A stretch of DNA of 64,000 nt from the NCBI GenBank assembly GCA_002418835.1, contig DIEX01000026.1:72547-136546 (forward strand), written 5' to 3'. The position numbers and the translations under genes are program-made. Positions within the stretch are counted from its first letter, which is position 1. The number at the start of each line of letters is the position of its first letter. This document shows positions 18,683 to 33,588 of this stretch, piece after piece. Below the pieces are notes generated by a model. It had not been told where the DNA came from. It made no database searches and saw only the letters and a program-made list of their open reading frames with translations. The stretch comes from Spirochaetia bacterium UBA5763. Its GTDB lineage: Bacteria > Spirochaetota > UBA4802 > UBA5550.

Positions 18683-21625
18683 ATGTCAAAAAAACAGACC
18701 ACTCCAAAGAAAAAAACCGGCAAAGAAAAGGAAACTGTAATATCTGAAGTAACCATTGAACCGGTTTCTGAAACAACAGAACAACCGTCAGATCATCCCG
18801 CTGATAAACGCGAACTCACCAGGAAAGAAAAAAAACTTGAAGCTAATCTTAAACGTAAATCCCGTCCATTGCCTCTCCGGATACTGAAACAGATCGCAAA
18901 AACTCTCTTTATCAGGATACCTCTCACGCTTGTGGTGATAATTGCTGCTGTGCTTCTTTTTGCAGGGATATACCTTACACCTGGAACAGTTGAGAATCTT
19001 GCGAAGAGCACATTCAACGGTATGTCCAATGGTACACTTGAACTTAAGGTTGAAGAATTTAATTTATACAGCGGATTTGCAATAAACAATATTGTTGTGC
19101 GCAGTGGTGATGACTTCAGCAAAGAGAAACTCTTTGAAATGGAGAGAATTGTTTTCAGATACGGTTTTTTTAAGATATTCACGGGGAGCATAAGGTTCCC
19201 TGAGATCGGCCTGTATAAACCGAGGGTTTACCTTACAGAAAAAAACGGAGTCTGGAATGCAGCTACACTGATGAAACCCTCTGAGAAAAAGGAGGAACCG
19301 GAGAAAGAGGAGGAGAAGGAACCATCCGAACCTTCAACAGGGGATATTGAACTCCCCATAGCTGTTGACTTTCTTTTTAACTTTATTCTGGATGACCTCC
19401 GCGTTTATGTGCGGGGGAGCGATATGAAGGCTGACATGACAGGTCTCACCTTTAAAGCTCTAATTGACGTTCCTCCTTTTAAAACTATCCCCAGGTCAGT
19501 TGAAGCTGTGCGGATACTTAAAACCATGAAGTTTGAGCTTAACCCGGAAAAAAGCATGAATGTGAAGTTCTACTCCACTGCTGCTGCAACAGAACCTGAA
19601 CTTATACTTAACTGGATGCTCAATTTCAGCAACGGTGATACTCCGCAGTTCAGCAGCACGCTGAATGCCGGAGCGAAGAGGATGCCTCTGAGGCTTCAGA
19701 ACAAATTTCTCTCCCCTTTCAGTTTTCTTATAGCTTACGATATTTTTTATAATCCGATAAATGATATACTCAAAATAAATTCATTCTCTGTAAGTTTCCA
19801 GAACAGCAACTGGATCAGGCTTTCAGGGAGAGTCAGCAGCGTCACAAAAAACCAGGTGCTCGATATAAAGATGGATGAGAGCCGCATACCCCTTGGGGAT
19901 CTCTACCCCTACTATGTTATCATGACAGGGGACAGATCAATGAGATGGAGCGGAGAGGCTTCTCTTGCACCGCTGTCTGTACACGGCACAGCAAAGGCCC
20001 CTGAAGTTGAGGGAGCGATTAATCTCAGAAACCTGTTTTTTAAAAATCCCGGAATCGAGGCAAGGGTTCCCCTCCTCTCTCTTGCATACTTTATGAGGAT
20101 GTATGGAAGTTCAATGGATCTTGGAGCTGACCTTGCGGTTCCTCACCTCGCCTACACTATTGAAGGGAGCAAATCCGGTGACAATGGAGTGAAGTTCTCT
20201 GCCAGGGCATCAGGGATAAATAATTTTTCTCAGGTGAAGATAAACGGGGTTTCTTTCGATTTTTATAATCCTGCCGGAGGGGAGAAGGCAGTGTCTATGA
20301 ACCTCGGCGGCTTTGTCAATCTCGGGAAAGCCATGAGCGGAAATATCAATATCGATAAACTCCGGATCAACACTCACCCGCTCCCTGCGATGGTTCCCGG
20401 CCGTTTCAGAAAACAGGTTGCTGATATCCCTCTCAAAAAACCTGTTGATATTACAATAGGTACCGGATTCTCTCTCACCGGAAGCAAAACCTCCGCAACC
20501 CTTAACTTACTTGCAAAGATACCGGACTACGGAGTGAACGACCTGGCACTTGACGCATCAATAGAACAGGATGCCGATGCAAAAAGAGTCCGCATCAATA
20601 AAGTGAATCTCGGCAGTAAAAGCATGAACCTCCTCCTTGCAGCAAACGGAACTGTTGATCTGAAAAAAGCACCGTTATCCGACTCCGATCTCCGGGTTTC
20701 GCTGGAACTGAATAACCCTGCGCTGCGGAACATTTTCGGCCCATGGAAAACATCCGGTGTGATGAAACTTTCAGCGAGGATGAAAGGAGACCTGGATACA
20801 GGGAAAGCTTCAGGCAACCTTGTATTCAACAGATTTAATGTCCGGAATGACGATGAAATGCTCGCTCTTACGGATCTTGACATGAACTTCCCCTTTGAGT
20901 ATGAATTTAAAGCCCGAAAAGCAGGGAAATCATATATTGCTGTTACGCAGAAGCAGGTTATTGACAGCGAATATTTCAGTGAAAAAGCAAACTTCACAAT
21001 TAAATCTATAAGCGCCAAACACCCCGCAAGAAAAATTCCTTATGAATATATGAAAGGTTTCTCAGCCTATATGATATTCAGCGACAATGTATTCAGAATT
21101 TCAGACCTCAAAGCTTCGATCATGGATGGATCGATCTACGGCAGGTCTATCCTTTTTAACCTTGCGGACTTTAAGACTGAGAATATGGAGTTCAGCCTTA
21201 TCCTTGATGCTTCAAACATAAACATCGCGCGTCTCGATGATCCTGATCCGAAGAAGGGTGGGAAAAACGCGGAGCTTTCACTTAACGCCAACTTCTCCGG
21301 GAAAGGACTTGATATAAAAAAAGAACTCACCGCTTCCGGTTATATCAATATCTACAAAATCGGGGCTGACTTCGCGAACAGGCTCATGCGTGGACTTTCT
21401 GAAGAGCAGGGTAAATCGAAACTCGGTGCCCCTGTTCAATTTGCTGTGGACAACTCCATGCTGATCAAAGGCTTCGACTTCAGGCTTGATAAAGGCCTTG
21501 TGTATACTACGGTTACTTTCACAAGAAAAATGCTGAGTCTTTTTGTTACAGTTGATAACTCGCAGGTATCATTTGAACGGATACCTATACAGGAATATTT
21601 AAGAAAAGTTTCGGAGGCAAAATAA
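18683..21625 (+). CDS. Large inner-membrane-anchored AsmA-like / YdbH-like protein
   Basis: A charged N-terminus precedes a single TM segment (LTLVVIIAAVLLFAGIYL) and about 900 aa of beta-rich sequence. A YdbL-like gene follows immediately, with the junction reading TAATATG. Confidence 0.5.
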   Translation: MSKKQTTPKKKTGKEKETVISEVTIEPVSETTEQPSDHPADKRELTRKEKKLEANLKRKSRPLPLRILKQIAKTLFIRIPLTLVVIIAAVLLFAGIYLTPGTVENLAKSTFNGMSNGTLELKVEEFNLYSGFAINNIVVRSGDDFSKEKLFEMERIVFRYGFFKIFTGSIRFPEIGLYKPRVYLTEKNGVWNAATLMKPSEKKEEPEKEEEKEPSEPSTGDIELPIAVDFLFNFILDDLRVYVRGSDMKADMTGLTFKALIDVPPFKTIPRSVEAVRILKTMKFELNPEKSMNVKFYSTAAATEPELILNWMLNFSNGDTPQFSSTLNAGAKRMPLRLQNKFLSPFSFLIAYDIFYNPINDILKINSFSVSFQNSNWIRLSGRVSSVTKNQVLDIKMDESRIPLGDLYPYYVIMTGDRSMRWSGEASLAPLSVHGTAKAPEVEGAINLRNLFFKNPGIEARVPLLSLAYFMRMYGSSMDLGADLAVPHLAYTIEGSKSGDNGVKFSARASGINNFSQVKINGVSFDFYNPAGGEKAVSMNLGGFVNLGKAMSGNINIDKLRINTHPLPAMVPGRFRKQVADIPLKKPVDITIGTGFSLTGSKTSATLNLLAKIPDYGVNDLALDASIEQDADAKRVRINKVNLGSKSMNLLLAANGTVDLKKAPLSDSDLRVSLELNNPALRNIFGPWKTSGVMKLSARMKGDLDTGKASGNLVFNRFNVRNDDEMLALTDLDMNFPFEYEFKARKAGKSYIAVTQKQVIDSEYFSEKANFTIKSISAKHPARKIPYEYMKGFSAYMIFSDNVFRISDLKASIMDGSIYGRSILFNLADFKTENMEFSLILDASNINIARLDDPDPKKGGKNAELSLNANFSGKGLDIKKELTASGYINIYKIGADFANRLMRGLSEEQGKSKLGAPVQFAVDNSMLIKGFDFRLDKGLVYTTVTFTRKMLSLFVTVDNSQVSFERIPIQEYLRKVSEAK

Positions 21626-21626
21626 T

Positions 21627-22220
21627 ATGAAAAAACATCTCTTAGCAGTAATTATACTTTCACTGGCCTGCTATACCCTTTCAGGGTGCAAATCCACACC
21701 GAGCTGCCTTACTGTTGTTCCGCCGGAAATCAACCTCACCGGCGAGAAGACTGTTATTGAAAGACAGATTGTCGGAGACTACATGGAACTGGAAAAGGAC
21801 GCATGGACAGTCTCTTCTATACGCACAACTGTGGGTAAAACTGAAGGGGGTTCCCAGGGGAGCGGGGATCCGGAGATAATCAAATCTATTAAAGTCCAGG
21901 AATTCCACGCGGGTAAAATCAGGGAGTACAAAACTGAAGGTGCAATAGGCGAAACCTCAGCGGGATATGTGTCATATATTGAGTCCCCGCAATACGAATC
22001 ATCACCTGAACTGAAAAAAATTCTCCATACCGTTATTGATGAAGAGAATAAAGCGCGAAGAGATATATTCCTGAAGACCCTTGCAAAAAGCGGAGGTAAG
22101 GAACCTTCAAAAAGCGAAATAGATTCATTCGGAAAAATATTTTCAGAAGAGCAGAGGGCCCTTGCTCAGAAGGGTGACTGGGTTCAGGACAATTCAGGCA
22201 AGTGGACCAGGAAAAAATAG
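21627..22220 (+). CDS. Lipoprotein with a DUF1318/YdbL-like C-terminus, possibly a YnbE-like plus YdbL-like fusion
   Basis: The lipobox is LSGC. The C-terminus ARRDIFLKTLAKSGG..AQKGDWVQDNSGKWTRK matches my memory of the YdbL signature (G-W-x-Q..G-x-W-x-K). Confidence 0.55.
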   Translation: MKKHLLAVIILSLACYTLSGCKSTPSCLTVVPPEINLTGEKTVIERQIVGDYMELEKDAWTVSSIRTTVGKTEGGSQGSGDPEIIKSIKVQEFHAGKIREYKTEGAIGETSAGYVSYIESPQYESSPELKKILHTVIDEENKARRDIFLKTLAKSGGKEPSKSEIDSFGKIFSEEQRALAQKGDWVQDNSGKWTRKK

Positions 22221-22222
22221 TT

Positions 22223-25200
22223 ATGAACATGAAGATTCTCTTAAAATATATATTACCTCTCTCAATACTTTTGCAGGCTGCGGTTATCATCTCATGTGAT
22301 GATAAAAAAACTGCTGATGTACAATTCAGTTATCGCGGCATTATTGACAAGGAGTACAGGTTCAATGTGGGCCGAGTTATTCCTGTCACAATAAGCCAGT
22401 CCATTGAAACTGACGGGGACATTTCCGCTGACGGTAACTACTTCTTTTACTCTTCAAATATGGACGGAGGAAATTTCGACATATACCTGAGGCTAATGGG
22501 TGACATCACAACAGTACGCCTCACTGCTCACCCTTCAAAGGATACAAGCCCTGTTATATCCCCGGACGGCAGGAGAGTGGCCTTTGTCTCTTTCAGAGAC
22601 GACCCGGAAGGTGATATTTTTATTATTAAATTAAAACCTGAGGAACTGCTGAAGAGGGCCTCTTCCGGTGAGGAGATCCCCCCTCTTGACAACACAGCTG
22701 TAAACATTACTGCTGAGAAAAATCCTGACACAGGTGTTATCATCAACATAAAAGATTCAAATCCGTGCTGGAGCCCGGATGGCAAACTTCTCGCTTTCTC
22801 ATCATCAAAAGATGGAAACGGCAGCATCTGGCTTATGGAGAGAGACGGAAGCTCGAAAAGAAAAATTTCGCCAAAAGACGGATTTTACCCTGCATTCTCC
22901 CCTGACGGAAAGAAGATTGTATATACTTCATACAGCGATAATATTTACGGCGACATCTACTCTGTGGAAATTGCAGCAGGTAAATCTGAACGGCTCACAA
23001 CAGGTGATTCAATCAAACTCTACCCGTCATACAGCGGAGGGAGCGATAAAATAATATACTCCTCCATCGAAAATGATACCAATGGCAATGGGGAACTGGA
23101 CCTTCAGGACAGATCTGTCATAAGGCTATACGATCTGAAAGAGAAACTAAGTTATCCCCTTACAAAAAAATCGGATACATCATTCAAAGCAAAATGGCTC
23201 CCTGTATTGAATACAAGGGATTATAATGGTGTAATTATCTATACTGACATAACCGGTGAGAATATAAACCTCAACATCATCCCTGAACTGGGGATAATTC
23301 CGAAAAAACTTAATGCAAAACTTCAGTATGAACTCTGTGAAACATATATCTCTGAATATGACGATGAAGAGAGATATGCCATGGCGCTTGACGCAGTTTA
23401 TTCTTTCTATGGAAAGGCTGGCGATACGTCCTCCAGGGCTTATGTAAACCGATCATTAAAAGAGGGAGCTCTATACTATTTTTTGAAAAAAAACAACGCC
23501 GCAAGTTCTGAAAGCACTGCTCTTCTTAAAAAGAAGGCCGCAGGTAATGACCTCTATGCCGCATTTCTCATTGACCTCATCGAGAACCGGAGATCTCAGG
23601 CTGATGCTCTTATCCTGAAAATGAGTGAAGATAAAAACAACAGGTATTTCGCTCCATTCGCCATTGAGGATCTTGGTGATCTGGCCCTGCTTTCAGGAAA
23701 AAAGAATGAAGCAGCAGCACTCTACAAAGACCTGCTGAAAAAATTTCCTGATTTTGAAAGAGGAACTGATGTTCTGACTAAAATTTCATTAATCAGTGAT
23801 GACCTCCGCAAAGGAACACTTTCTGATGCAGCTGTTACAATTATAAACAAAGGGAACACGAACCAGAAAATATCTGTTACCTCAAATCTTATTAATCCTC
23901 TGGAGAAAACCCGGTTTTCATCCGCAGATGCATCGGAAGCTCTTCGCAACATAGGAAATTTAAAAAAGAAATTTTCCGAAGATAAAAAAATCATGGCAAT
24001 ACTGACACTGGCTTCCGGAATCATCAGTGACAGCGCAGGGAAAACTGATACCGCAAAAAATGATCTGGAAGAATCGATAAAACTCTCGCACCCCAATGAC
24101 CTGACATACTACACAGCCAACATCAGGCTCGCGGAGATGGAGAGACGGTCCGGCAGAAATGCCGAAGCTGAAAAATATTACGGCGCGGGTGTAAACCGTT
24201 ATTCACGAAGATTTAAAACAGAAAATTTCCGTGATAAACTTTTATGGATTATAAATTATTACGAACAGGCGGGTGAACGAAGCTCATCAAAAGGGGACTT
24301 TGCCGCTGCATCACAGATTTATGACAAGTATATCAATCTCATTACACTGATGCACAACAAACGGATCTACCCTGAAATCTATACTGAATACGCTCCACGC
24401 GCCCATGTACTTTACATAGACGCTTACACAGGATGGAAAGGTGAAGAGGGGATTAATGAACTTGAGAAGAGTTACAACTCAAAACTCCCTGTACTGAGGA
24501 TGGACTTTAACCGTGCAGCTCTCTACGGCCTTGCCTACATCTACACAAAAAAAGCAATGCTCATCGACTCCGATGCACAGGCTCTGATCTCAACTTTTTC
24601 CAGAGATAAAGTATTTGAAAACCTCTACCTTGCTGATAAACAGATCGAATGGGCCCTCTTTCTTGACGATACATTTATTGAACCATACCTGCTGAAGAGC
24701 TGGATATATCTTTTCATAGACCTTCAGAGAAAGGAGTACGGTGATGATATTGAATCATCAATCGGGAGTTATTTTCCAAAAAGGCTATGGGAAAAAAATA
24801 TACCATTACTTGATAAAGCGATCAATGCCAACAACGAAAAGCTCTATCCGGAGAACGAGGGTAACATCCACATTAATCTGGGGAACACTTACTTCCTCCT
24901 GGTTAACTATCCAAGGGCTCTGAACCATTACAACACTGCGCGTAAATTCAAGAAGACCTTCAGCTCCGACATAGAGAAAGCTCTCTTCCATTTTCATACA
25001 GGATACACACTCTGGCAGAATGGTGAAGTGAAAGAAGCGCGTGAGGAGATAACCAGGGCTTACGGCATATACAGCACACTTGCGGCAGGTTCATCCTCTA
25101 AATACAAAAACCAGATACTTGCCCTTTACAGATACTTCGCCCTTTTCAGCAGGTACGAGGAGAAATTCGCTGAAGCAATCAACTGGTACAAAAAAATTAT

Positions 25201-28200
25201 TAAACATGCTGAAGAAAATAAAATCGAAATTGATAAAGCCCGCTACATGCAGGAGATCGCCTTCTGCTTCAAGGAACTTGGAGACTACGATACAGCTAAA
25301 TCATACATAGATACCGCAGACCGGCTCCTTCGTGATTACCCGGATGATACAAAGAAATACTACCTCCGCATTAAACTCGTCGGGATAGGCCCCTTCCCTG
25401 TATTCAACATGGGGCCTGACACCGCAGTTATCGGAGACAATAAGATATTCTACCCCCTGGACAGATGGAACAAGCAACTCCTGAGCATTTCCATGCTTGA
25501 AGAACTCGCGGTGAAAAACAGCAACTATGCGGGCGCAATAGAATACCTGAAGAAAAAGATATCGCTCCTTGAGAAAAACAAAACATCCGTGGCCTATGAA
25601 ACAAGAATCAGGTCACTGAACAACCTCGGTTACTACTACTTCAGGTCAGGGAGCATTGCTGAAGCTGAAAAGAGATTCAGCGAAGCGGGTGAACTTGCAT
25701 CCGAAAAGAACAACCTCCAGGGGATATTCTCCTCAATGATGAATCTTGCGAACCTTTATGCCCTTATGATTGATGAAGGAAAAAATGAAGGTCACAACTG
25801 GCTCTCTGACACTGAAAAGTTTCTGTCTAAAATTGAAAAATACAGAAACAGCTATTTTGACATGCGATTCACACAGGACAAGAAGGCACTTGAAGCTGCT
25901 GCAGATGCAAAAAAAGCAGAAGTAACACCTGAACAGATTGCGGCATTAAAAAAGACCATTGAAAAACAGACAGCGGAAATATATTACTCCCTCGACATTT
26001 CAATTGCAATGATGAAGTTCTACAGAGCTGAACTCCTTTATTCATCTTCTGACGTTAAAAAAGGGGATAATCCCCATTATAATCTTTATACGCACAACAG
26101 GGATATATATAATCTCTACGCTGAAGCTCTCAGAATGTTTGAGGGAGCAATATCCGTTGCAGATAAACAGGGGAACAGGGAACTTAAAGTCAAACTCCTT
26201 GTGAATGCGGCGCACTGCTACGAAAAGATCAGCGAGTATGAAAAGGGATACGTTGCGCTCATAGATGCCAGAAACATATCCACGCAGTACAGGTTCGGGT
26301 GGACAGGGATAAACGCAGATTTTGCACTTGGGTCATATCTCGCTGATTACGGGAGAGAGGTTGAGAGCGGTGATTACAGGGCCCTTGTTGAAAGATATAT
26401 GTCAGCAGCAATATCCCATATAGAAGAACACCCGCTTCTCTACACCCCGCGCGCAGGGAAGATCAGAAAGATGTATAACAGGTACGCCGAATTTCTTGTT
26501 AATACAGGAAAAGGGGACCGCGGGTTCCATTTACAGGAAAGACTTAACCGTGTTGAACGGATAACATCTGTAAACTCAATAAACCCTGTATTCGGCGATG
26601 AATACCACAGAAACGCCTACTTCACTTATCTCTCTGAAATTGCAAAATTAGGGGAGATTAGGGACAGGAGATCAGCACTCCTTGTTTCAGGCGCTGCTGC
26701 CGCATCTCCGGAAGTTGAAGAGTTCAATAAAAAAGAGAAAGCTCAGGAGGAGAGACTTGCTAAACTCTTCCGTGAAATAGAAAATAAAAACAGCAGAATT
26801 GTTCCATACCTGGAACTCAGCGATGTTAAGCTGAAAACAGACCATGACATATATTCATTCATGGAAACCGGAAAAGGGATCTATTCATGGAAGCTCTCTG
26901 ATGGAAAGATAAGTTCAGGATACATGAAAGCTGATTCTGCAGATGCTCTGTCTTCCATGATAAACGAAGGCTCATCCAGGAGAGGAATTTTTATACTGCT
27001 GAATGACACATCCCTGAAACTTGTCAACAGGCACAGGGGTGGAATCACCGGGAACTTCTCTTTCATAAATACTATAGACAGGGCTGAAATTTTTTCAAAG
27101 GGAGCACCCCCTGCGGGTGATATTATCTCTTCAGTAAAGGGGATCGAAAGCCCCTCTGCTGATGTGAAAGTTGAATCCCCCTCAGAGGATCTTCACCTGT
27201 CGAGCTATGCTGTTATTGTTGATTCACCGGATAACGGAAGCCTTATAAGCAGGGAAAAACTCCTGTCTGAGAAGGGGATTTCACCCAGCTGCATAATTCT
27301 TGCAGGTGCTGCTGACGATGCCTCACGCCTCTCTCTGATGCTTGAAGCTGCACTCTATTCAGGGACAGGGAGTATCATCTATTCACTGAGTAATGACAGC
27401 AGAGACATATCATCTGTCATCAAAGCCCTTTACACCGGCAGCGGGATTATAGGTTCTAATCATATAAAAACCGGTTACATCAATGCACTCTCTTATGTAA
27501 AACCAGCTGACAATAAAAAAACCGCTGCATCTGAATTCGCGGCCTTCACCGGGGCAGTAAATAAAGCTGACTTTGATAGTGGTGCTGTTCACCTCGCAAG
27601 ATGGAGAGCAATGTCTCCTGATGAAAAGTTCAGGTATATGACTTCAGCATGGCTCCTGCATCTTCTTAAAGGGGACTACCCCTCTTCACTTAAAGCACTG
27701 GAGTCGTACAACCCGTCAAATGCCGACGAAGGGGCTTCGCTGGTATTCAGAAAGCTCTACACGCTTCTGCATAAAGGGGATTTTGCTGAAGCAGTTGTAC
27801 TCCGGAAAAAAATCACAGGGATTGAGAAATACCCTGATCTTGAATTTATCGATGCAATTTTTGACGCAGTGAACGGCCGTGATTCAGCGGCAGAAAAAAT
27901 TCTTAAAATAGCAAAACCGTATAATACGCTTATAACTGCTGAAAGATATATGATACTTGCTGCTGAATACATTTATCTTTATAATCCTGAGATGAGCGCA
28001 CGCGTGATGAACCTGGCCCCCATGAAGCAGCTCTCACTGAATGAAAGGATGATGAATTTTGTAATCACAGGGGATAAGCCCGATACAGGGATATCCCCCA
28101 GGGTTGACCGTATCGCCGCCCTGGGTGATTCAGGGAGTAAAGCCGCGGATGAGAGCATGAAACTTATAAAGTCCGGCGATCACTTCGACGCCCTCTCCGC

Positions 28201-29869
28201 TTTCCCCCCGCTTGTTGTGCTGGCCGGTGGATCGGTTAAGGGGGATGCTGTTTCATACATATCTGGCCTTGACCTTGAAAAGATCGCACCTGCATCATAC
28301 ACACCTGCAATAATAGCGCTGCTTCAGAAGTGCTATGCATCAATTCCTGAAAACGGAACAAATGCTGAAAAAATAAAAATTCTCCAGCTGATGAAAAAGG
28401 TTTCATCCGATTCCTCTGTTTTCCATGTGATACGGGATTCGATGTACAGAATCGCTGTGGAGCTTATGATATCCGGGGATTACAGGGGTGCGTATAATGA
28501 AGCATCCGCTGCGGACGAAAGGTTCAGCCCTGATGACAGGGGCTATGCGGCAATTCAGCTTCTCCTTGCCAATCTTCTTATAAGGGGGGAGAATTTTAAA
28601 AAAGCTGAAGAGAAGTGTACCATCGTAAAAAACATCCGCCCCCTCAAAACTGAAGAGAAGTACCTCCTTGATCTCCAGTTATCCATGGTTGAACTTAACA
28701 GACTCCGCTCACTTAAAAAAGCAACGGCTCAGGATGCCGCTGAATTTGAGAAGCTCTTCACTTCATCACTTGCTGTTCTGAAACTTAACCCGGATATTCT
28801 GAACATACACGGCTACAGGGATATGACAGTAAGCGTTTTTGACGAATACATCAACTACAAGATGAAAACAGGACAGCATTCTGACGCGCACTTCTACAAC
28901 GAAATGAAAAAGCTCTTAATCACTTCATCTATAACAGGAGTAAACCTTGTAAAATCAGCAGGCACAATAGATATAACAGCAATTCAGCAGGCGCTCCCTG
29001 AAAAGTGCGGCTATATAAATATATCAAAAGTTAAAAATGATATATTCATCTGGATTGTTGACAGCAAAATGAAAAAAGCACTCTGGATTGAAAACGGGTA
29101 CAAAACACTTTCAGAGCTGCTACCGAAATACAGGCTTTCAGTGCTGAAAGAATCTGAAGTGAAGAAAGCATCTTCAGACCTGGCGGAATATTTTCAGCCC
29201 CTTGAAGCATACTTTAAAAGCAGAAAGCAGGTTGTTTTTTCAACAGATTCATTCACAGAGCAGATACCCTTTGAAATTATCGGTAAAGGAAAAATGCTCT
29301 CTGAAGAGGTGAAGATAAGCTACATGGCATCACCTCTGCTGTACTCATCATCTAAAGGGAATTTCGGATCACCTGTGCGCTTTATCGGGAAGCCGGGCCA
29401 GGCATTTCAGTCTCATGTTGAGAAGGTGGCTGTGCGCGAATCGGGGATTAAGAGCTTTGATGCTGATTCAGCGTCAGGAGGGATCGCCCATATAACAGGG
29501 GAGATTTCATACAGTTCACCTGAAAAGGGATATCTCCTTGATAACAGGGGATTGGTTTCTGCCATAGGTTCCCCGGATTTTATTTATGCTGCAATTGGTG
29601 ACCATCACGGAGCAGGGCCCGTTGACTTTATTCTCAATGCAAGGGGTGCGGGAGTTAAAGCTGCTGTTGTCAATTCATCGCCTGTAAGTGAACTTAACAG
29701 AGGAGTTTTTGCAGGGGAGTTTTACAGGTCTGTAAATAACGGCGGCACACTGATTGAATCATTTGCATCAGCAGTGGATAAAACACGGAATGACAGCAGG
29801 TACAGGAACCCCGGTGCATGGGGCGGGTTCAGGTTGTATATTTATAATTTAGCTTATCTGAAAGAGTAA
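22223..29869 (+). CDS. Giant lipoprotein (about 2548 aa) with an N-terminal TolB-like PD40 beta-propeller, long TPR/helical-repeat arrays and two CHAT-like modules
   Basis: I chose the ATG at 22223, 3 nt after the upstream stop. The lipobox is AAVIISC. PD40-like repeats include SPDGRRVAFVS, SPDGKLLAFSS and SPDGKKIVYTS. The C-terminus QIPFEIIG..ISYMASPLL..GGIAHITGE..NPGAWGGFRLYIY is CHAT-like. Confidence 0.8.
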   Translation: MNMKILLKYILPLSILLQAAVIISCDDKKTADVQFSYRGIIDKEYRFNVGRVIPVTISQSIETDGDISADGNYFFYSSNMDGGNFDIYLRLMGDITTVRLTAHPSKDTSPVISPDGRRVAFVSFRDDPEGDIFIIKLKPEELLKRASSGEEIPPLDNTAVNITAEKNPDTGVIINIKDSNPCWSPDGKLLAFSSSKDGNGSIWLMERDGSSKRKISPKDGFYPAFSPDGKKIVYTSYSDNIYGDIYSVEIAAGKSERLTTGDSIKLYPSYSGGSDKIIYSSIENDTNGNGELDLQDRSVIRLYDLKEKLSYPLTKKSDTSFKAKWLPVLNTRDYNGVIIYTDITGENINLNIIPELGIIPKKLNAKLQYELCETYISEYDDEERYAMALDAVYSFYGKAGDTSSRAYVNRSLKEGALYYFLKKNNAASSESTALLKKKAAGNDLYAAFLIDLIENRRSQADALILKMSEDKNNRYFAPFAIEDLGDLALLSGKKNEAAALYKDLLKKFPDFERGTDVLTKISLISDDLRKGTLSDAAVTIINKGNTNQKISVTSNLINPLEKTRFSSADASEALRNIGNLKKKFSEDKKIMAILTLASGIISDSAGKTDTAKNDLEESIKLSHPNDLTYYTANIRLAEMERRSGRNAEAEKYYGAGVNRYSRRFKTENFRDKLLWIINYYEQAGERSSSKGDFAAASQIYDKYINLITLMHNKRIYPEIYTEYAPRAHVLYIDAYTGWKGEEGINELEKSYNSKLPVLRMDFNRAALYGLAYIYTKKAMLIDSDAQALISTFSRDKVFENLYLADKQIEWALFLDDTFIEPYLLKSWIYLFIDLQRKEYGDDIESSIGSYFPKRLWEKNIPLLDKAINANNEKLYPENEGNIHINLGNTYFLLVNYPRALNHYNTARKFKKTFSSDIEKALFHFHTGYTLWQNGEVKEAREEITRAYGIYSTLAAGSSSKYKNQILALYRYFALFSRYEEKFAEAINWYKKIIKHAEENKIEIDKARYMQEIAFCFKELGDYDTAKSYIDTADRLLRDYPDDTKKYYLRIKLVGIGPFPVFNMGPDTAVIGDNKIFYPLDRWNKQLLSISMLEELAVKNSNYAGAIEYLKKKISLLEKNKTSVAYETRIRSLNNLGYYYFRSGSIAEAEKRFSEAGELASEKNNLQGIFSSMMNLANLYALMIDEGKNEGHNWLSDTEKFLSKIEKYRNSYFDMRFTQDKKALEAAADAKKAEVTPEQIAALKKTIEKQTAEIYYSLDISIAMMKFYRAELLYSSSDVKKGDNPHYNLYTHNRDIYNLYAEALRMFEGAISVADKQGNRELKVKLLVNAAHCYEKISEYEKGYVALIDARNISTQYRFGWTGINADFALGSYLADYGREVESGDYRALVERYMSAAISHIEEHPLLYTPRAGKIRKMYNRYAEFLVNTGKGDRGFHLQERLNRVERITSVNSINPVFGDEYHRNAYFTYLSEIAKLGEIRDRRSALLVSGAAAASPEVEEFNKKEKAQEERLAKLFREIENKNSRIVPYLELSDVKLKTDHDIYSFMETGKGIYSWKLSDGKISSGYMKADSADALSSMINEGSSRRGIFILLNDTSLKLVNRHRGGITGNFSFINTIDRAEIFSKGAPPAGDIISSVKGIESPSADVKVESPSEDLHLSSYAVIVDSPDNGSLISREKLLSEKGISPSCIILAGAADDASRLSLMLEAALYSGTGSIIYSLSNDSRDISSVIKALYTGSGIIGSNHIKTGYINALSYVKPADNKKTAASEFAAFTGAVNKADFDSGAVHLARWRAMSPDEKFRYMTSAWLLHLLKGDYPSSLKALESYNPSNADEGASLVFRKLYTLLHKGDFAEAVVLRKKITGIEKYPDLEFIDAIFDAVNGRDSAAEKILKIAKPYNTLITAERYMILAAEYIYLYNPEMSARVMNLAPMKQLSLNERMMNFVITGDKPDTGISPRVDRIAALGDSGSKAADESMKLIKSGDHFDALSAFPPLVVLAGGSVKGDAVSYISGLDLEKIAPASYTPAIIALLQKCYASIPENGTNAEKIKILQLMKKVSSDSSVFHVIRDSMYRIAVELMISGDYRGAYNEASAADERFSPDDRGYAAIQLLLANLLIRGENFKKAEEKCTIVKNIRPLKTEEKYLLDLQLSMVELNRLRSLKKATAQDAAEFEKLFTSSLAVLKLNPDILNIHGYRDMTVSVFDEYINYKMKTGQHSDAHFYNEMKKLLITSSITGVNLVKSAGTIDITAIQQALPEKCGYINISKVKNDIFIWIVDSKMKKALWIENGYKTLSELLPKYRLSVLKESEVKKASSDLAEYFQPLEAYFKSRKQVVFSTDSFTEQIPFEIIGKGKMLSEEVKISYMASPLLYSSSKGNFGSPVRFIGKPGQAFQSHVEKVAVRESGIKSFDADSASGGIAHITGEISYSSPEKGYLLDNRGLVSAIGSPDFIYAAIGDHHGAGPVDFILNARGAGVKAAVVNSSPVSELNRGVFAGEFYRSVNNGGTLIESFASAVDKTRNDSRYRNPGAWGGFRLYIYNLAYLKE

Positions 29870-30060
29870 GGGGCATCACGCAAAGACGCTAAGGCGCGGA
29901 GGGGGTTGAGAATGCAAGCAACTGGGTTAACGACCATCTGTTTACCAGTGATGATGAGGGAAATGGGGAGAACCCAACGGTTGGTTCAAATACTGAAGGT
30001 GACAATGGAGGATCAACTTCAGAACAGATAGCTTCCAACCAGCTTTCGACAGATCAGAAG

Positions 30061-30723
30061 ATGACCGAATACAGACATGCTACAGAAACGAATGACTCTA
30101 CCGAAGAGGAAGATTATACCCCAGGTAAATTTAAACAATCAGAAATCGATGAACATATTGGATTACTTGATGAAAATGGTAATTTAATAAAAAGAAGCTG
30201 TAATATTACAGCAGATATTAGCATATTTGTAAATCAGGCAATTAAAGATGGAACGATAAATCCCGATATAATCAATCCCGCAACAGGTGAAGTAGATTTA
30301 ACAAAAGTATATGATATTGCAAAGAGTTATGGAGATTCGATTATAAAAGGGAATTTCAGTGTCGCTGATGATGAAAAGCTTGCTAAGATTATTGCACCAA
30401 CTTCAAATTATTCTTTAGTCAATGGTGGGACAGTAACATCAGATAATATAATAAATCATCTGGATAGTGGGCAGCCTGTTAAAGTAACATTAAGTGATGG
30501 GCATAGAGAAACTATATATGACTATGATACTGATGCAAATGGTAATGTAACCAGATTCAAGATAGATGATGTCGGTTATCAGGGGGATAAATACGTAGAT
30601 CCAAAGACAATGCAGCCATACAAGGTTACCAATGAAGGAACTAAATATGAAAAGAAAAAATATTCTCAAAGTCACGGTGATGGCTCAGCAAGAACTGTTA
30701 ACAATATACAAGTTTTACAATGA
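30061..30723 (+). CDS. Papain-fold (Cys-His-Asp) putative toxin or amidase domain, probably a 5'-truncated orphan module
   Basis: The candidate triad is RSCNITADISIF, then SGQPVKVTLSDGHRETIYDYD, then FKIDDVG. The frame is open from 29893 (after a TAA at 29890-29892). Codons 29893-30060 contain no in-frame ATG, GTG or TTG, and the ATG at 30061 has no obvious RBS. Confidence 0.45.
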   Translation: MTEYRHATETNDSTEEEDYTPGKFKQSEIDEHIGLLDENGNLIKRSCNITADISIFVNQAIKDGTINPDIINPATGEVDLTKVYDIAKSYGDSIIKGNFSVADDEKLAKIIAPTSNYSLVNGGTVTSDNIINHLDSGQPVKVTLSDGHRETIYDYDTDANGNVTRFKIDDVGYQGDKYVDPKTMQPYKVTNEGTKYEKKKYSQSHGDGSARTVNNIQVLQ

Positions 30724-30754
30724 TTGAAAGACTAAAAGGGGGATTGAATAATTT

Positions 30755-31381
30755 ATGAAAAGATCTATGACTACTTGGTTGTTTGCTTTAATCCTTATAG
30801 TTAGTTACCAATTTGTTGAGTGTAAGACAGATAGTAAAAAAACTCTGCCGAAATTTGAAGAAATTAATAAACAAACCGGAGTCTATATAATCAGATATTC
30901 AAATGTAATTTTAGATATTAATAATAAAAAAATTAAGGTTCCTATTTATAACGGTATTCATGAGGATATCACTTATGAAGATTTAGAGAAACAACAAACG
31001 GACAAAGATTTATATTTATTAGGCAATATTTATATTCCAGCAAAAGACGGTGAAGTTAAGAAAACATTTTTTGATATATTGAATTTTTATAAGAAGAGTT
31101 TTTTTAAAGATATAGATGTAAACAGGCCATCCGTAATAGGCAATGAAGGTGGAGTTGACATGTATATCTGGTATGACTTTGATTACGAAGGAATCCCCTG
31201 CTCAATGATGATTACAGTGGCATGTGATGTTAAAGCTTCAATTGAAAAAAATAAAAAGGAGAATTCAAATCAAAAAAAGAATTATAAGATAGAAACAGTA
31301 GATATGCTTGAATTTAAAGAAGATTCAAAATGGATCGGAATCGATATTGAGTTAGGTCATTATAGCGAATTCAAGAAGTAG
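30755..31381 (+). CDS. Secreted or lipoprotein hypothetical, a candidate cognate immunity protein
   Basis: The signal peptide is MKRSMTTWLFALILIVSYQFVEC. The gene starts 31 nt after the toxin-like ORF, shares its AT-rich composition, and has AAGGGGGA upstream. Confidence 0.4.
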   Translation: MKRSMTTWLFALILIVSYQFVECKTDSKKTLPKFEEINKQTGVYIIRYSNVILDINNKKIKVPIYNGIHEDITYEDLEKQQTDKDLYLLGNIYIPAKDGEVKKTFFDILNFYKKSFFKDIDVNRPSVIGNEGGVDMYIWYDFDYEGIPCSMMITVACDVKASIEKNKKENSNQKKNYKIETVDMLEFKEDSKWIGIDIELGHYSEFKK

Positions 31382-31422
31382 CCAGGCGAACAGGTAATTT
31401 TTTATTACATTTTGCAATGAAT

Positions 31423-31555
31423 CCGCATATAGCATAATGGCTAAGCAGCCCGACGTCGCCGGGGATACATTAGGTTTCTGACATAAAAAGTTGGCGATGT
31501 GCGCTCGCCCTGAGCCTGTCGAAGGGTTAACGAACGGGCTGCGACAATTATGCGG
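31423..31555. other. GC-rich nested-helix element, either a candidate structured RNA or a REP-like element
   Basis: The nested complementary pairs are ccgcata (31423-29) with tatgcgg (31549-55), gcagcccg (31445-52) with cgggctgc (31535-42), and gtcgcc (31454-59) with ggcgat (31493-98). Confidence 0.35.
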
Positions 31556-31633
31556 TGTGCGGATGCGGGGAACGGATTTTTAATACATTAAGTTTATGCG
31601 GTGGGATAGTTTAGAAACATAGAAATATTTCTT

Positions 31634-31663
31634 TTGACATAAACCTGTATAAAATATAGGTTT
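31634..31663 (+). promoter_or_regulatory. Putative vapBC promoter with an operator palindrome
   Basis: TTGACA at 31634-39 is followed by the near-palindrome aaacctgtat-aaa-atataggttt (31641-31663), about 20 nt upstream of the vapB ATG. Confidence 0.35.
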
Positions 31664-31682
31664 TATCCACGCAGGAGGAAAT

Positions 31683-31913
31683 ATGATCAATCTGGAAATC
31701 AAAAAAAAGCTTATAGAGGACTTAAAAAATCTCCCCTTTGATTCTCAGAAAAAGGTGCAGGAGTTCGCGCACGCCCTTCTGATAACTCAAAGCCGGGGGA
31801 AATCAGGCAAAGAGATGGTCAGGTTTTCAGGAAAACTGAACCACGAAGATGCCGGAGAGCTGAAAAAGATAATTGAGAACGGATGTGAGAAGGTTGATAT
31901 CAATGAGTGGTAG
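31683..31913 (+). CDS. vapB: Type II antitoxin (VapB-like)
   Basis: This 76-aa ORF has GGAGGA upstream. Its 3' end overlaps the PIN gene start by 11 nt, and it ends in the ..CEKVDINEW-type tail common in PIN-partner antitoxins. Confidence 0.65.
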   Translation: MINLEIKKKLIEDLKNLPFDSQKKVQEFAHALLITQSRGKSGKEMVRFSGKLNHEDAGELKKIIENGCEKVDINEW

Positions 31914-32307
31914 ATATCTGGTTGATACCAATATTATTATTGATCTCTTTAATGGTGATGATGCTGTCACAAAGAAGATTATTACATGCTCTGAAGTCTT
32001 TGTTCCAAATATTGTAATCGGGGAATTGTATTACGGCTCATACGGCTCAAAGAAGAAAAAAAGCAATTTAAAGAGGCTTGAAGAATTTATTGTTTCATCA
32101 ACAGTAATTAATACAACTGTTGAGACGGCCAGAATTTACGGGCATATCAAGAATGAGCTGAAGAAGAAGGGAACCCCAATCCCTGAGAATGATATCTGGA
32201 TAGCCGCACTGGCAAAACAGTATTCATTGAAACTATTAACAAGAGACAGGCATTTTGAATCTATTGATGAGATAGATGCAGAGATACTGCGAAGCAAAAC
32301 GCCATGA
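31903..32307 (+). CDS. vapC: PIN-domain ribonuclease toxin VapC
   Basis: I placed the start at the ATG at 31903. The acidic PIN residues lie in YLVDTNIII, IGELYYG, ENDIWIAALA and LLTRDRHF. Confidence 0.85.
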   Translation: MSGRYLVDTNIIIDLFNGDDAVTKKIITCSEVFVPNIVIGELYYGSYGSKKKKSNLKRLEEFIVSSTVINTTVETARIYGHIKNELKKKGTPIPENDIWIAALAKQYSLKLLTRDRHFESIDEIDAEILRSKTP

Positions 32308-32351
32308 TACCTTTCCCCTTTTCCGATAATGCATGAGTTTAACTGAAACTT

Positions 32352-32603
32352 ATCGGCATTGATTAAAAATACATCGACACCGACTGAATTTATATCAGCT
32401 TCAATAGAAATTACATCAAGCTCGATATAATTTACATCAACGTTGATTGAATTTATATCGATTTCAATTGATTTTACATTGAATTCAATGCAAAAGGTAT
32501 CGAGGCTGACTGAATTTATATCAGTTTCAATATAATTTATATTGAATTCAATTGAAATTATATCGGCTTCAATACAAAATACATCAACGATGATATTAAT
32601 TAC
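32352..32603. repeat. Twelve tandem, perfectly phased 21-bp AT-rich direct repeats
   Basis: The unit starts (ATC or ATT) fall at 32352, 32373, 32394 and so on to 32583, exactly 21 bp apart with no indels. The consensus is approximately ATCRNNNTCRATNNAAWTTAY. Confidence 0.9.
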
Positions 32604-32760
32604 TTGAGTCAGGCGTTTTTTTCATTAATATAAGTTATTCTTTGTCATGCCGGTTTCCTGTAAGGAATACCGGCAACTCATAGTAGAAGTTCTGGAATTT
32701 ATCTTATGAGATTCAGGTATTTACAAATTCGGAAGACGTAAAACCGGTATTAAAAACTTT

Positions 32761-33588
32761 ATGACAGAAAAAGAAGATCTCCGCTACATAGAAAAAATCG
32801 AAAAGACCGCAGGACGGGCAATCAACCGCTACTCTCTGATCGCCGGTGGCGACCGTGTTGCAGTTGCACTCTCCGGAGGGAAAGACTCCCTTGTTCTACT
32901 TGAAACTCTTGCCCGCAGAAGAAGAAGGCTCCCTGTCACTTACGAACTCTTTGCAGTATATGTATTCATAAAAAATATAGGCTACGAATCTGATATAAAC
33001 TTTATGCGGGAATTCTGCGCGTCTCTCGATGTCCCTTTTCACCTCATAGAGATGGAAGCAGACCTCACCATTGACCGGAGCAAATCTAAATGCTTTGTAT
33101 GCTCATGGCACAGGAGAAAGGCTCTCTTTAATTTCGCGGAGGAGATGAGCTGCAATAAACTTGCCCTTGGCCATCACCTTGATGACGCAATAGAAACACT
33201 GATAATGAACATGATGTTCAATGGAATAACAAGCTCTCTCCCCCCTTCCCTCTCAATGTTCAGCGGCAGACTGCATGTGATACGGCCCCTGATACTTCTT
33301 GAAAAGAAGGAGATTGATAAATACGCTGAGATAAGGGTATTCCCTTCTGAAGTTAAACGCTGCCCTTATGGAGAAGATACAACGAGGATCAAAGCCCGTG
33401 AGATGATAGAGCAGATGACATCCGGGAGCAGCACAATAAAAAAAGTATATTCCGCAGTATGTCGAATATTCACAAAGAGTATCTGCCGCCTGAATAAGCA
33501 AGGGGCTGCAACCCCTTGTTTATTCAGGCAACCCCTTGCTCCTGTGGCAAAAAATCAATCCGGAAGATTATACCCGCACCCTTCATAA
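32761..33588 (+). CDS. ttcA: TtcA-family PP-loop tRNA thiolation ATPase
   Basis: The PP-loop is VALSGGKDS. Cys motifs are SKCFVCSWHRRK and KRCPYGED, and LALGHHLDD is also present. The last 30 or so codons run through a GC hairpin and overlap the convergent gene. Confidence 0.75.
   Translation: MTEKEDLRYIEKIEKTAGRAINRYSLIAGGDRVAVALSGGKDSLVLLETLARRRRRLPVTYELFAVYVFIKNIGYESDINFMREFCASLDVPFHLIEMEADLTIDRSKSKCFVCSWHRRKALFNFAEEMSCNKLALGHHLDDAIETLIMNMMFNGITSSLPPSLSMFSGRLHVIRPLILLEKKEIDKYAEIRVFPSEVKRCPYGEDTTRIKAREMIEQMTSGSSTIKKVYSAVCRIFTKSICRLNKQGAATPCLFRQPLAPVAKNQSGRLYPHPS
33499..33518 (+). terminator. Hairpin caagggg-ctgcaa-ccccttg followed by tttattc, lying inside the 3' end of the ttcA-like ORF
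   Basis: A perfect 7-bp GC-rich stem is followed by a T-rich tail. A second copy of caaccccttg lies at 33528-33537. Confidence 0.45.

Follow-up and report, generated by a model that had tools for sequence, protein, structure and literature searches.

The window analyzed here, a stretch of 64,000 nucleotides from contig DIEX01000026.1 of Spirochaetia bacterium UBA5763, carries at positions 18683–29869 three tightly packed + strand genes that we consider a candidate intermembrane module of the spirochaete envelope. Gene 1 (18683–21625) encodes an AsmA-like protein of 980 residues from the LIC_11026 family, presumably a groove protein that spans the periplasm. Gene 2 (21627–22220) encodes a lipoprotein of 197 residues with a signal peptide and the lipobox LSG-C21, and gene 3 (22223–29869) a giant lipoprotein of 2,548 residues, counted from the ATG at 22223–22225, with the lipobox IIS-C at 22295–22297. 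The frame of gene 3 is open from 22202 to 29869, with its first ATG at 22223 and its stop codon at 29867–29869; counted from a GTG at 22202, the lipobox cysteine behind the signal peptide is Cys32. The three genes fill the interval with spacers of 1 and 2 nucleotides (nt). At the first junction (21613–21629), a GGAGG Shine–Dalgarno sequence (21613–21617) lies within the end of gene 1, 9 nt upstream of the ATG of gene 2, and is followed by TAA-T-ATG (21623–21629). At the second junction (22209–22225), AGGA (22209–22212) is placed 10 nt upstream of the ATG of gene 3 and is followed by TAG-tt-ATG (22218–22225). An earlier, sequence-only reading of this DNA had described the genes as packed end to end with these two junctions, and the sequence reads exactly so; the domain content that it listed (AsmA-like, DUF1318, PD40, TPR and CHAT) was confirmed by family scans. 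The spacer between the stop of gene 1 and the start of gene 2 has a median of −0.5 nt and is mostly −4 to +5 nt in 54 related loci, and genes 2 and 3 mostly overlap or lie at most 6 nt apart in 57 related loci. A gap of 477 nt precedes gene 1, and the three genes are probably transcribed as one unit. A consensus scan for promoters and terminators was uninformative, with counts no higher than in shuffled sequence.

The product of gene 1 matches the NCBIfam model NF047499 (LIC_11026_fam), which is named for a Leptospira interrogans locus, with 344.7 bits at a cut-off of 325. In Pfam, its C-terminal part matches AsmA (PF05170) with 25.4 bits and its N-terminal part DUF748 (PF05359) with 28.5 bits, both below the gathering thresholds of 29.8 and 50. 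The best AsmA match among 18 members of its family has an E value of 7.5e-14 and the best DUF748 match one of 3.5e-13; at E ≤ 0.01, AsmA was matched in 14 of the 18 and DUF748 in 13. A single N-terminal transmembrane helix, preceded by a Lys-rich cytoplasmic tail, is read from the translation at about residues 75–98 (18905–18976), and the relatives share this layout. From the NF047499 match, the AsmA and DUF748 matches in the relatives and the N-terminal anchor it follows that gene 1 encodes a member of the AsmA-like superfamily, with a predicted single N-terminal anchor and a long periplasmic body. The sequence-only reading had named the protein AsmA/YdbH-like, of which the first half stands. 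Orthology with YdbH, or membership of its family, was ruled out: the model PF11739 (DctA-YdbH) gave no match in gene 1 at E ≤ 0.1 or in the 18 family members at E ≤ 0.01, and the comparisons with Escherichia coli YdbH were insignificant (BLASTP E 0.083; hhalign probability 1.2%). The source genome, which is 91% complete, has at least two further AsmA-like open reading frames outside the window, with frames of 505 and 705 residues (G000:C5:71814–72485 and G000:C1:506324–508051), and no match to the TamB family model PF04357.

The C-terminal part of the gene 2 product (about residues 80–197; 21864–22217) is a true YdbL domain by sequence and by fold, in agreement with the DUF1318/YdbL resemblance first noted for it. 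Residues 96–196 match Pfam PF07027 (DUF1318) with 48.2 bits at a gathering threshold of 27, and BLASTP aligns the protein to E. coli YdbL with an E value of 1e-8. In an AlphaFold model based on an alignment of 50 homologues, residues 80–197 have predicted local distance difference test (pLDDT) values of 87–97. A Foldseek search with this model returned a sole significant match, 28oj, which is the crystal structure of E. coli YdbL (E 4.2e-5; template modeling score of 0.71 on the target). The YdbL residues that contact the YnbE helix in E. coli are R28, E60, R61, L68, K70, A83 and L87 (bioRxiv 10.64898/2026.03.16.712125). The gene 2 positions aligned to them (K102, E140, N141, F148, R/K150, F172 and Q176) are invariant or nearly so in the 50 homologues, from which it follows that the YdbL domain retains a binding surface under constraint. 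Unlike the soluble periplasmic YdbL of E. coli, whose partner is the C-terminal helix of a separate YnbE, the gene 2 product is a lipoprotein, with the lipobox Cys present in nearly all homologues examined, and no YnbE gene was found in 41 related genomes. Lipidated or fused forms of YdbL are not mentioned in the papers on the E. coli protein. An E. coli-type ENA contig of 903 bp encodes a 104-residue in-frame YnbE–YdbL fusion (protein P0161; ...DKDVEELLETR-KASYQQLAK...), which is either a real deletion or an assembly artefact.

The segment next to the lipid anchor, residues 21–68 (21687–21830), constitutes a module of 48 residues that belongs to no named family and is the most conserved part of the protein. 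Its mean column identity of 64% in the gene 2 family alignment is the highest of any segment. The module begins 0–10 residues after the lipidated Cys and follows the motif C..PSC..VPPxInLTGEKTVIERQIVGDYxELEKDAWxxSSx(R/K)T, which in Leptospira takes the form PPITFTQTQTxxEKQMVGEDRELEKxGW. Within it, a strand-like stretch precedes an acidic, helix-like one. With gene 2 modeled as a single chain the module is disordered, its pLDDT being only 40–50; high conservation combined with such values suits a segment that acquires its fold when bound to a partner. A profile of the module searched against 1.84 billion representative proteins gave 135 matches, 108 of them with a length of 160–260 residues, and DUF1318 is present in 104 of the 109 carriers scanned (these 108 together with gene 2). 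A stand-alone form of the module was considered and rejected, the short matches inspected being truncated or frame-shifted fragments. The module is an unnamed element found almost exclusively fused ahead of a YdbL domain.

A resemblance of the post-lipobox segment to the short lipoprotein YnbE, which the sequence-only reading had suggested, obtained no statistical support, and homology to YnbE was rejected as unsupported. The Pfam YnbE model gave no match above cut-off in the 41 related genomes, and none of its 14 weak matches at E ≤ 1 falls at gene 2. When the 109 module carriers were scanned with Pfam at E ≤ 1, YnbE (PF13617) did not rank within the top 25 families by number of carriers matched, and hhalign of the module against a shallow YnbE profile of enterobacterial sequences only gave P = 0.25. 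The two are nevertheless close in size, with 46 residues from C21 to R66 of gene 2 and 45 in mature E. coli YnbE. In most homologues, a second conserved Cys (the PSC motif; residues 21–27, 21687–21707 in the window) lies 2–14 residues past the lipobox Cys, and in some it is the only one of the two and takes over as lipobox Cys. The PSC Cys might engage in a disulfide bond or offer another site for lipidation. A protein of 405 residues, P0358, with four repeats of ...GFTEVEKDSWIIAPIAH..., matches the EKDxW part of the motif with an E value of 2e-5, probably an unrelated low-level similarity.

Gene 3 encodes a chain of binding and protease-like modules behind a lipid anchor. A signal peptide and a lipobox-type Cys are found in nearly all of its homologues listed. 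The N-terminal PD40 (TolB-type) β-propeller (residues ~60–370; 22379–23311) matches Pfam PD40 with 97.8 bits over four stretches when searched as an isolated piece. It is followed by a TPR/helical solenoid that extends to about residue 1530 (23399–26791; TPR_12, TPR_2 and TPR_14 matches), by a CHAT-like α/β module 1 seen in the AlphaFold model (residues 1549–1758; 26846–27475), by a second helical-repeat block between the CHAT-like modules (27512–28996; AlphaFold, with TPR proteins found by a profile search of PDB sequences), and by the C-terminal CHAT-like module 2 (residues 2269–2547; 29006–29842), recognized by Pfam, AlphaFold and Foldseek. The likeness to TolB reported in the sequence-only reading is limited to the propeller. 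The TolB model TIGR02800 gave 95 bits at a cut-off of 343.15, with its best stretch at propeller positions 238–344 of 418. Gene 3 shares with TolB of the Tol-Pal system a PD40-type periplasmic β-propeller; it is not its orthologue, and the identification as TolB was rejected.

The CHAT-like character of the C-terminal region is evident in the fold and absent at the expected catalytic positions. Pfam CHAT (PF12770) matches the isolated C-terminal piece with 29.3 bits at a threshold of 24, over profile positions 219–286 only. An AlphaFold model of residues 1531–2555 from a 27-sequence alignment has a mean pLDDT of 85.6 and a predicted template modeling score of 0.74, and Foldseek relates the C-terminal model to human and yeast separase (3e-9), the CHAT anti-sigma factor DdvA (1e-7) and Csx29 (6e-7), with matches ranging from 3e-9 to 1e-4. 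As in separase, Csx29 (Craspase) and DdvA, the C-terminal 1,000 residues combine helical repeats with a caspase-like architecture, in which the caspase-like fold occurs twice, as it does in separase. Unlike separase and the TPR-CHAT proteins, gene 3 encodes an exported lipoprotein with about 1,100 additional TPR residues and a PD40 propeller at its N-terminus, and the His-Cys dyad is missing from both folds. In module 2, the expected His-Gly reads IAHI-TGE and the expected Cys reads FIYAA-IGD, and no conserved His-Gly or Cys occurs in either module of the spirochaete homologues aligned. The dyad was mapped by the canonical motif pattern on sequence and secondary structure rather than by structural superposition, and the profile searches of PDB sequences gave no independent map of the catalytic residues, as their alignment with a CHAT protein was confined to the post-Cys tail. 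Because His-Gly and Cys are missing in the family alignments, both modules look like pseudo-protease folds. A function as an active CHAT protease was rejected on the same ground, so that of the CHAT-like modules announced in the sequence-only reading the fold stands in a scaffold-like form without the catalytic dyad. The N-terminal half, comprising the propeller and the TPR region, is better conserved and is the part kept in all shortened variants; in several lineages, gene 3 is 1,363–1,880 residues long and has no C-terminal CHAT part. In a subclade with a gene 3 of about 1,800 residues and no CHAT part, a gene of 400–458 residues follows (L072:15896–17146, L081:16023–17219 and L094:15794–17167); at a guess from its N- and C-terminal sequence (the C-terminus reads, for example, ...RYVDDITILG), it may encode a response-regulator/PP2C phosphatase.

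About 33 of 41 genomes from the same taxonomic order have the three genes side by side in this arrangement, and those of the 41 that lack gene 1 also lack genes 2 and 3. A pattern scan with the gene 2 alignment yielded 65 loci, all from uncultured Spirochaetota; nearly all of those with enough flank have an open reading frame of 914–1,090 residues upstream of gene 2 and one of 1,363–2,706 residues downstream. Three Leptospiraceae genomes carry a gene 1-type protein of 1,001–1,013 residues, a lipoprotein of 191–207 residues and a giant protein of 2,531–2,649 residues. In the one Leptospiraceae genome scanned (L032), the first of these matches LIC_11026 with 1,446 bits, the lipoprotein carries DUF1318, and the giant has PD40 and TPR. 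The trio is also found in one genome of family f8, and a distant metagenome contig encodes a DUF748 protein of 1,103 residues, a DUF1318 protein of 184 residues and a PD40/Tricorn/TPR/CHAT protein of at least 2,120 residues. The gene order is kept down to 22–33% protein identity. Across a sample of 301 genomes of the phylum, gene 2 occurs in 120, a gene 3 match in 122 and both in 119, the exceptions being two weak matches, of which one falls in a PD40 frame of 355 residues, and two genomes, of which one is fragmented and the other 71% complete. The giant gene is accordingly co-conserved with genes 1 and 2, the point on which the sequence-only reading had made its idea of a single system depend. 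Where full adjacency is missing, all three genes are present somewhere in the genome (8 of 8 tested), and the genera labeled g4, g6, g8, g14 and g24 lack all three. This co-occurrence without synteny, together with the joint loss, argues for a functional link between the three genes. Gene 2 looks like the hub of the trio, since the pairs of genes 1 and 2 and of genes 2 and 3 each occur alone.

Among the rearranged loci, L111 and L112 of family f19 (small AT-rich spirochaete genomes G213 and G236) have a DUF748-like gene of 1,083–1,101 residues coupled to gene 2, and a gene 3-like gene of 2,341–2,342 residues; in G213 the pair lies near 770 kb and gene 3 near 275 kb, and gene 3 is far off in G236 too. 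In the Leptospiraceae genus of G177 (L033:5390–7513), a ComEC-type competence gene comes after genes 1 and 2, and the gene 3 homologue, of 2,684 residues, is located about 125 kb away on the same contig.

The AsmA-like bridges YhdP, TamB and YdbH are the leading candidates for the route by which phospholipids arrive at the outer membrane. To our knowledge, the docking of such bridges at the outer membrane, or their regulation, is known only for E. coli YdbH–YnbE–YdbL and for TamAB. In E. coli, the groove of the periplasm-spanning YdbH is lengthened at the outer membrane by the lipoprotein YnbE, which adds strands to it (PMC11126948). YdbL binds the YnbE helix, prevents runaway multimerization of YnbE and helps docking, and the ratio of the proteins is critical (PMC11126948; bioRxiv 10.64898/2026.03.16.712125). 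According to a stoichiometry model from 2026, excess free YdbL is toxic through its titration of YnbE (bioRxiv 10.64898/2026.03.16.712125). The spirochaete locus resembles this system in having an AsmA-like, inner-membrane-anchored gene directly upstream of a YdbL/DUF1318 gene with tight coupling, in its lipoprotein partner, and in the YdbL fold with its helix-binding positions. It differs in that gene 1 falls outside the YdbH family and no YnbE gene was found, in that the YdbL domain has a lipid anchor of its own, from which a new module of 48 residues separates it, and in that a third co-occurring component, the 2,548-residue PD40-TPR-pseudoCHAT lipoprotein, has no counterpart in E. coli. 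With TamB–TamA and TamB–TamL it shares the combination of an AsmA-like bridge with a dedicated outer-membrane partner, which in Bacteroidota is a lipoprotein (PMC12045153); unlike the TamB systems, the partners of gene 1 are not Omp85 barrels, and PF04357 is unmatched in the source genome. Our literature search found nothing relevant on LIC11024–LIC11028, on AsmA-like proteins in Leptospira or on DUF1318, either alone or together with AsmA, and no paper on the partnership with the giant lipoprotein, which the sequence-only reading had not recognized as described either.

We consider it somewhat probable that the trio constitutes a single conserved envelope module and, as such, a variant in spirochaetes of the YdbH–YnbE–YdbL intermembrane bridge of E. 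coli. In such a module, the gene 1 product would be anchored in the inner membrane by its one helix and would offer a hydrophobic groove across the periplasm that passes phospholipids to the outer membrane. The gene 2 product would be the lipid-anchored partner, with its 48-residue module taking the anchor or docking role and presumably folding on contact with a partner; the most plausible one is the gene 1 product at its C-terminal end, by analogy with YnbE on YdbH. The YdbL-type domain, covalently tethered behind the module, would act in cis at a fixed anchor-to-chaperone ratio of 1:1, a balance that in E. coli has to be struck between two separate proteins. The gene 3 product would be a giant scaffold lipoprotein for which no catalytic activity is predicted. 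Through peptide-binding grooves on the surfaces of its propeller, TPR and pseudo-CHAT parts, it would probably bind gene 2, gene 1 or both, and it probably ties the bridge to another envelope component. A more specific proposal, put forward tentatively and regarded as possible rather than probable, is that spirochaetes including Leptospira build an AsmA-type bridge whose outer-membrane end is unlike that of E. coli. One lipoprotein would there combine a groove-capping anchor, a functional analogue of YnbE that is either independent or diverged beyond recognition, with the YdbL chaperone, and gene 3 would be indispensable as the third subunit, with the task of positioning or gating the bridge.

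Such a trio would represent a second bridge design, with a chaperone domain covalently tied to the anchor and a huge non-catalytic scaffold that co-occurs with them. The 1:1 fusion in gene 2 would remove the problem of YdbL excess posed by the stoichiometry model. If the proposal is true, the trio is a core envelope machine of the phylum and a natural experiment in the control of bridge assembly. The presence of the module in Leptospira, as the LIC_11026 family with its two neighbors, makes it genetically testable in the saprophyte L. biflexa.

Several observations weigh against a bridge of this kind. Gene 1 has no specific similarity to YdbH by BLASTP, hhalign or Pfam, and a profile search of solved structures found no relative of it. 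With a broader profile, the module gave P = 0.089 against YnbE in hhalign, and a reversed YnbE control gave 0.11; the parallel between the two is one of position and size only, and a YnbE-like role would be an analogy. Since the C-terminal CHAT part of gene 3 is missing in some lineages, it is not essential. Only genes 1 and 2 are adjacent in family f19, with gene 3 about 0.5 Mb off; only genes 2 and 3 are adjacent in f32, with gene 1 on another contig; and in f11 none of the three are adjacent. The co-occurrence counts, moreover, draw on a few large clades and lack phylogenetic independence.

It is possible, though in our judgment unlikely, that the module is real and serves something other than phospholipid transport. 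It could be an envelope tether or a cell-wall link through the TolB-like propeller, or act in the assembly of outer-membrane proteins or lipoproteins, with gene 1 as a generic AsmA-like spacer. AsmA-like proteins such as TamB and AsmA were first linked to outer-membrane protein assembly, which speaks for this alternative, as do the nature of PD40 propellers and TPR solenoids as protein- or peptide-binding modules and the lack of any pointer in the sequence to a lipid cargo. It is less easily reconciled with the conserved interface positions of the YdbL domain, and the only characterized pairing of an AsmA-like protein with YdbL is YdbH–YnbE–YdbL, which is implicated in lipid homeostasis (PMC11126948, PMC8593681).

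A docking of the gene 2 module on gene 3 instead of gene 1, or a role of the module as a sorting or membrane-insertion signal, seems distinctly unlikely. TPR and pseudo-CHAT grooves bind extended peptides or helices, and such an arrangement would suit both the pairs of genes 2 and 3 without an adjacent gene 1 in f32, where gene 2 may be a hub for gene 3, and the missing homology of the module to YnbE. The module is, however, equally conserved in f19, where only genes 1 and 2 adjoin, and its position beside the lipid anchor mirrors that of YnbE.

We regard it as very unlikely that gene 3 is a working or regulatory protease that cuts gene 2 at the SS-x-(R/K) loop and thereby switches the bridge by releasing a YnbE-sized lipopeptide (C21–R66, 46 residues) and a soluble YdbL domain. 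Of 109 family members, 76 have Arg or Lys at position 66 of gene 2 and 101 have Ser64, the N-terminal fragment would match mature E. coli YnbE in size, and the fold of gene 3 matches the real proteases separase, Csx29 and DdvA. Against this stand the missing His-Gly and Cys at the catalytic positions in the window and in the aligned spirochaete homologues, the restriction of the Pfam CHAT match to the non-catalytic tail of the profile, and the lineages that have no C-terminal CHAT part and still keep genes 1 and 2. That gene 3 is a mere neighbor by descent with no functional link to genes 1 and 2 is hardly credible: the loci come mostly from related spirochaete lineages, whose shared ancestry inflates the synteny counts, but the order persists at low protein identity and on the distant contig, the genes overlap or lie a few nt apart, gene 3 is retained when unlinked, and all three are lost together in several genera.

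Downstream of gene 3, an AT-rich block occupies positions 29870–32760 of the window, up to a ttcA-like gene at 32761. In a relative from the same genus (G005, locus L057:11619–12350), where gene 3 encodes 1,455 residues, a ttcA-like gene directly follows gene 3, and the AT-rich block of the window therefore looks like an insertion relative to G005.

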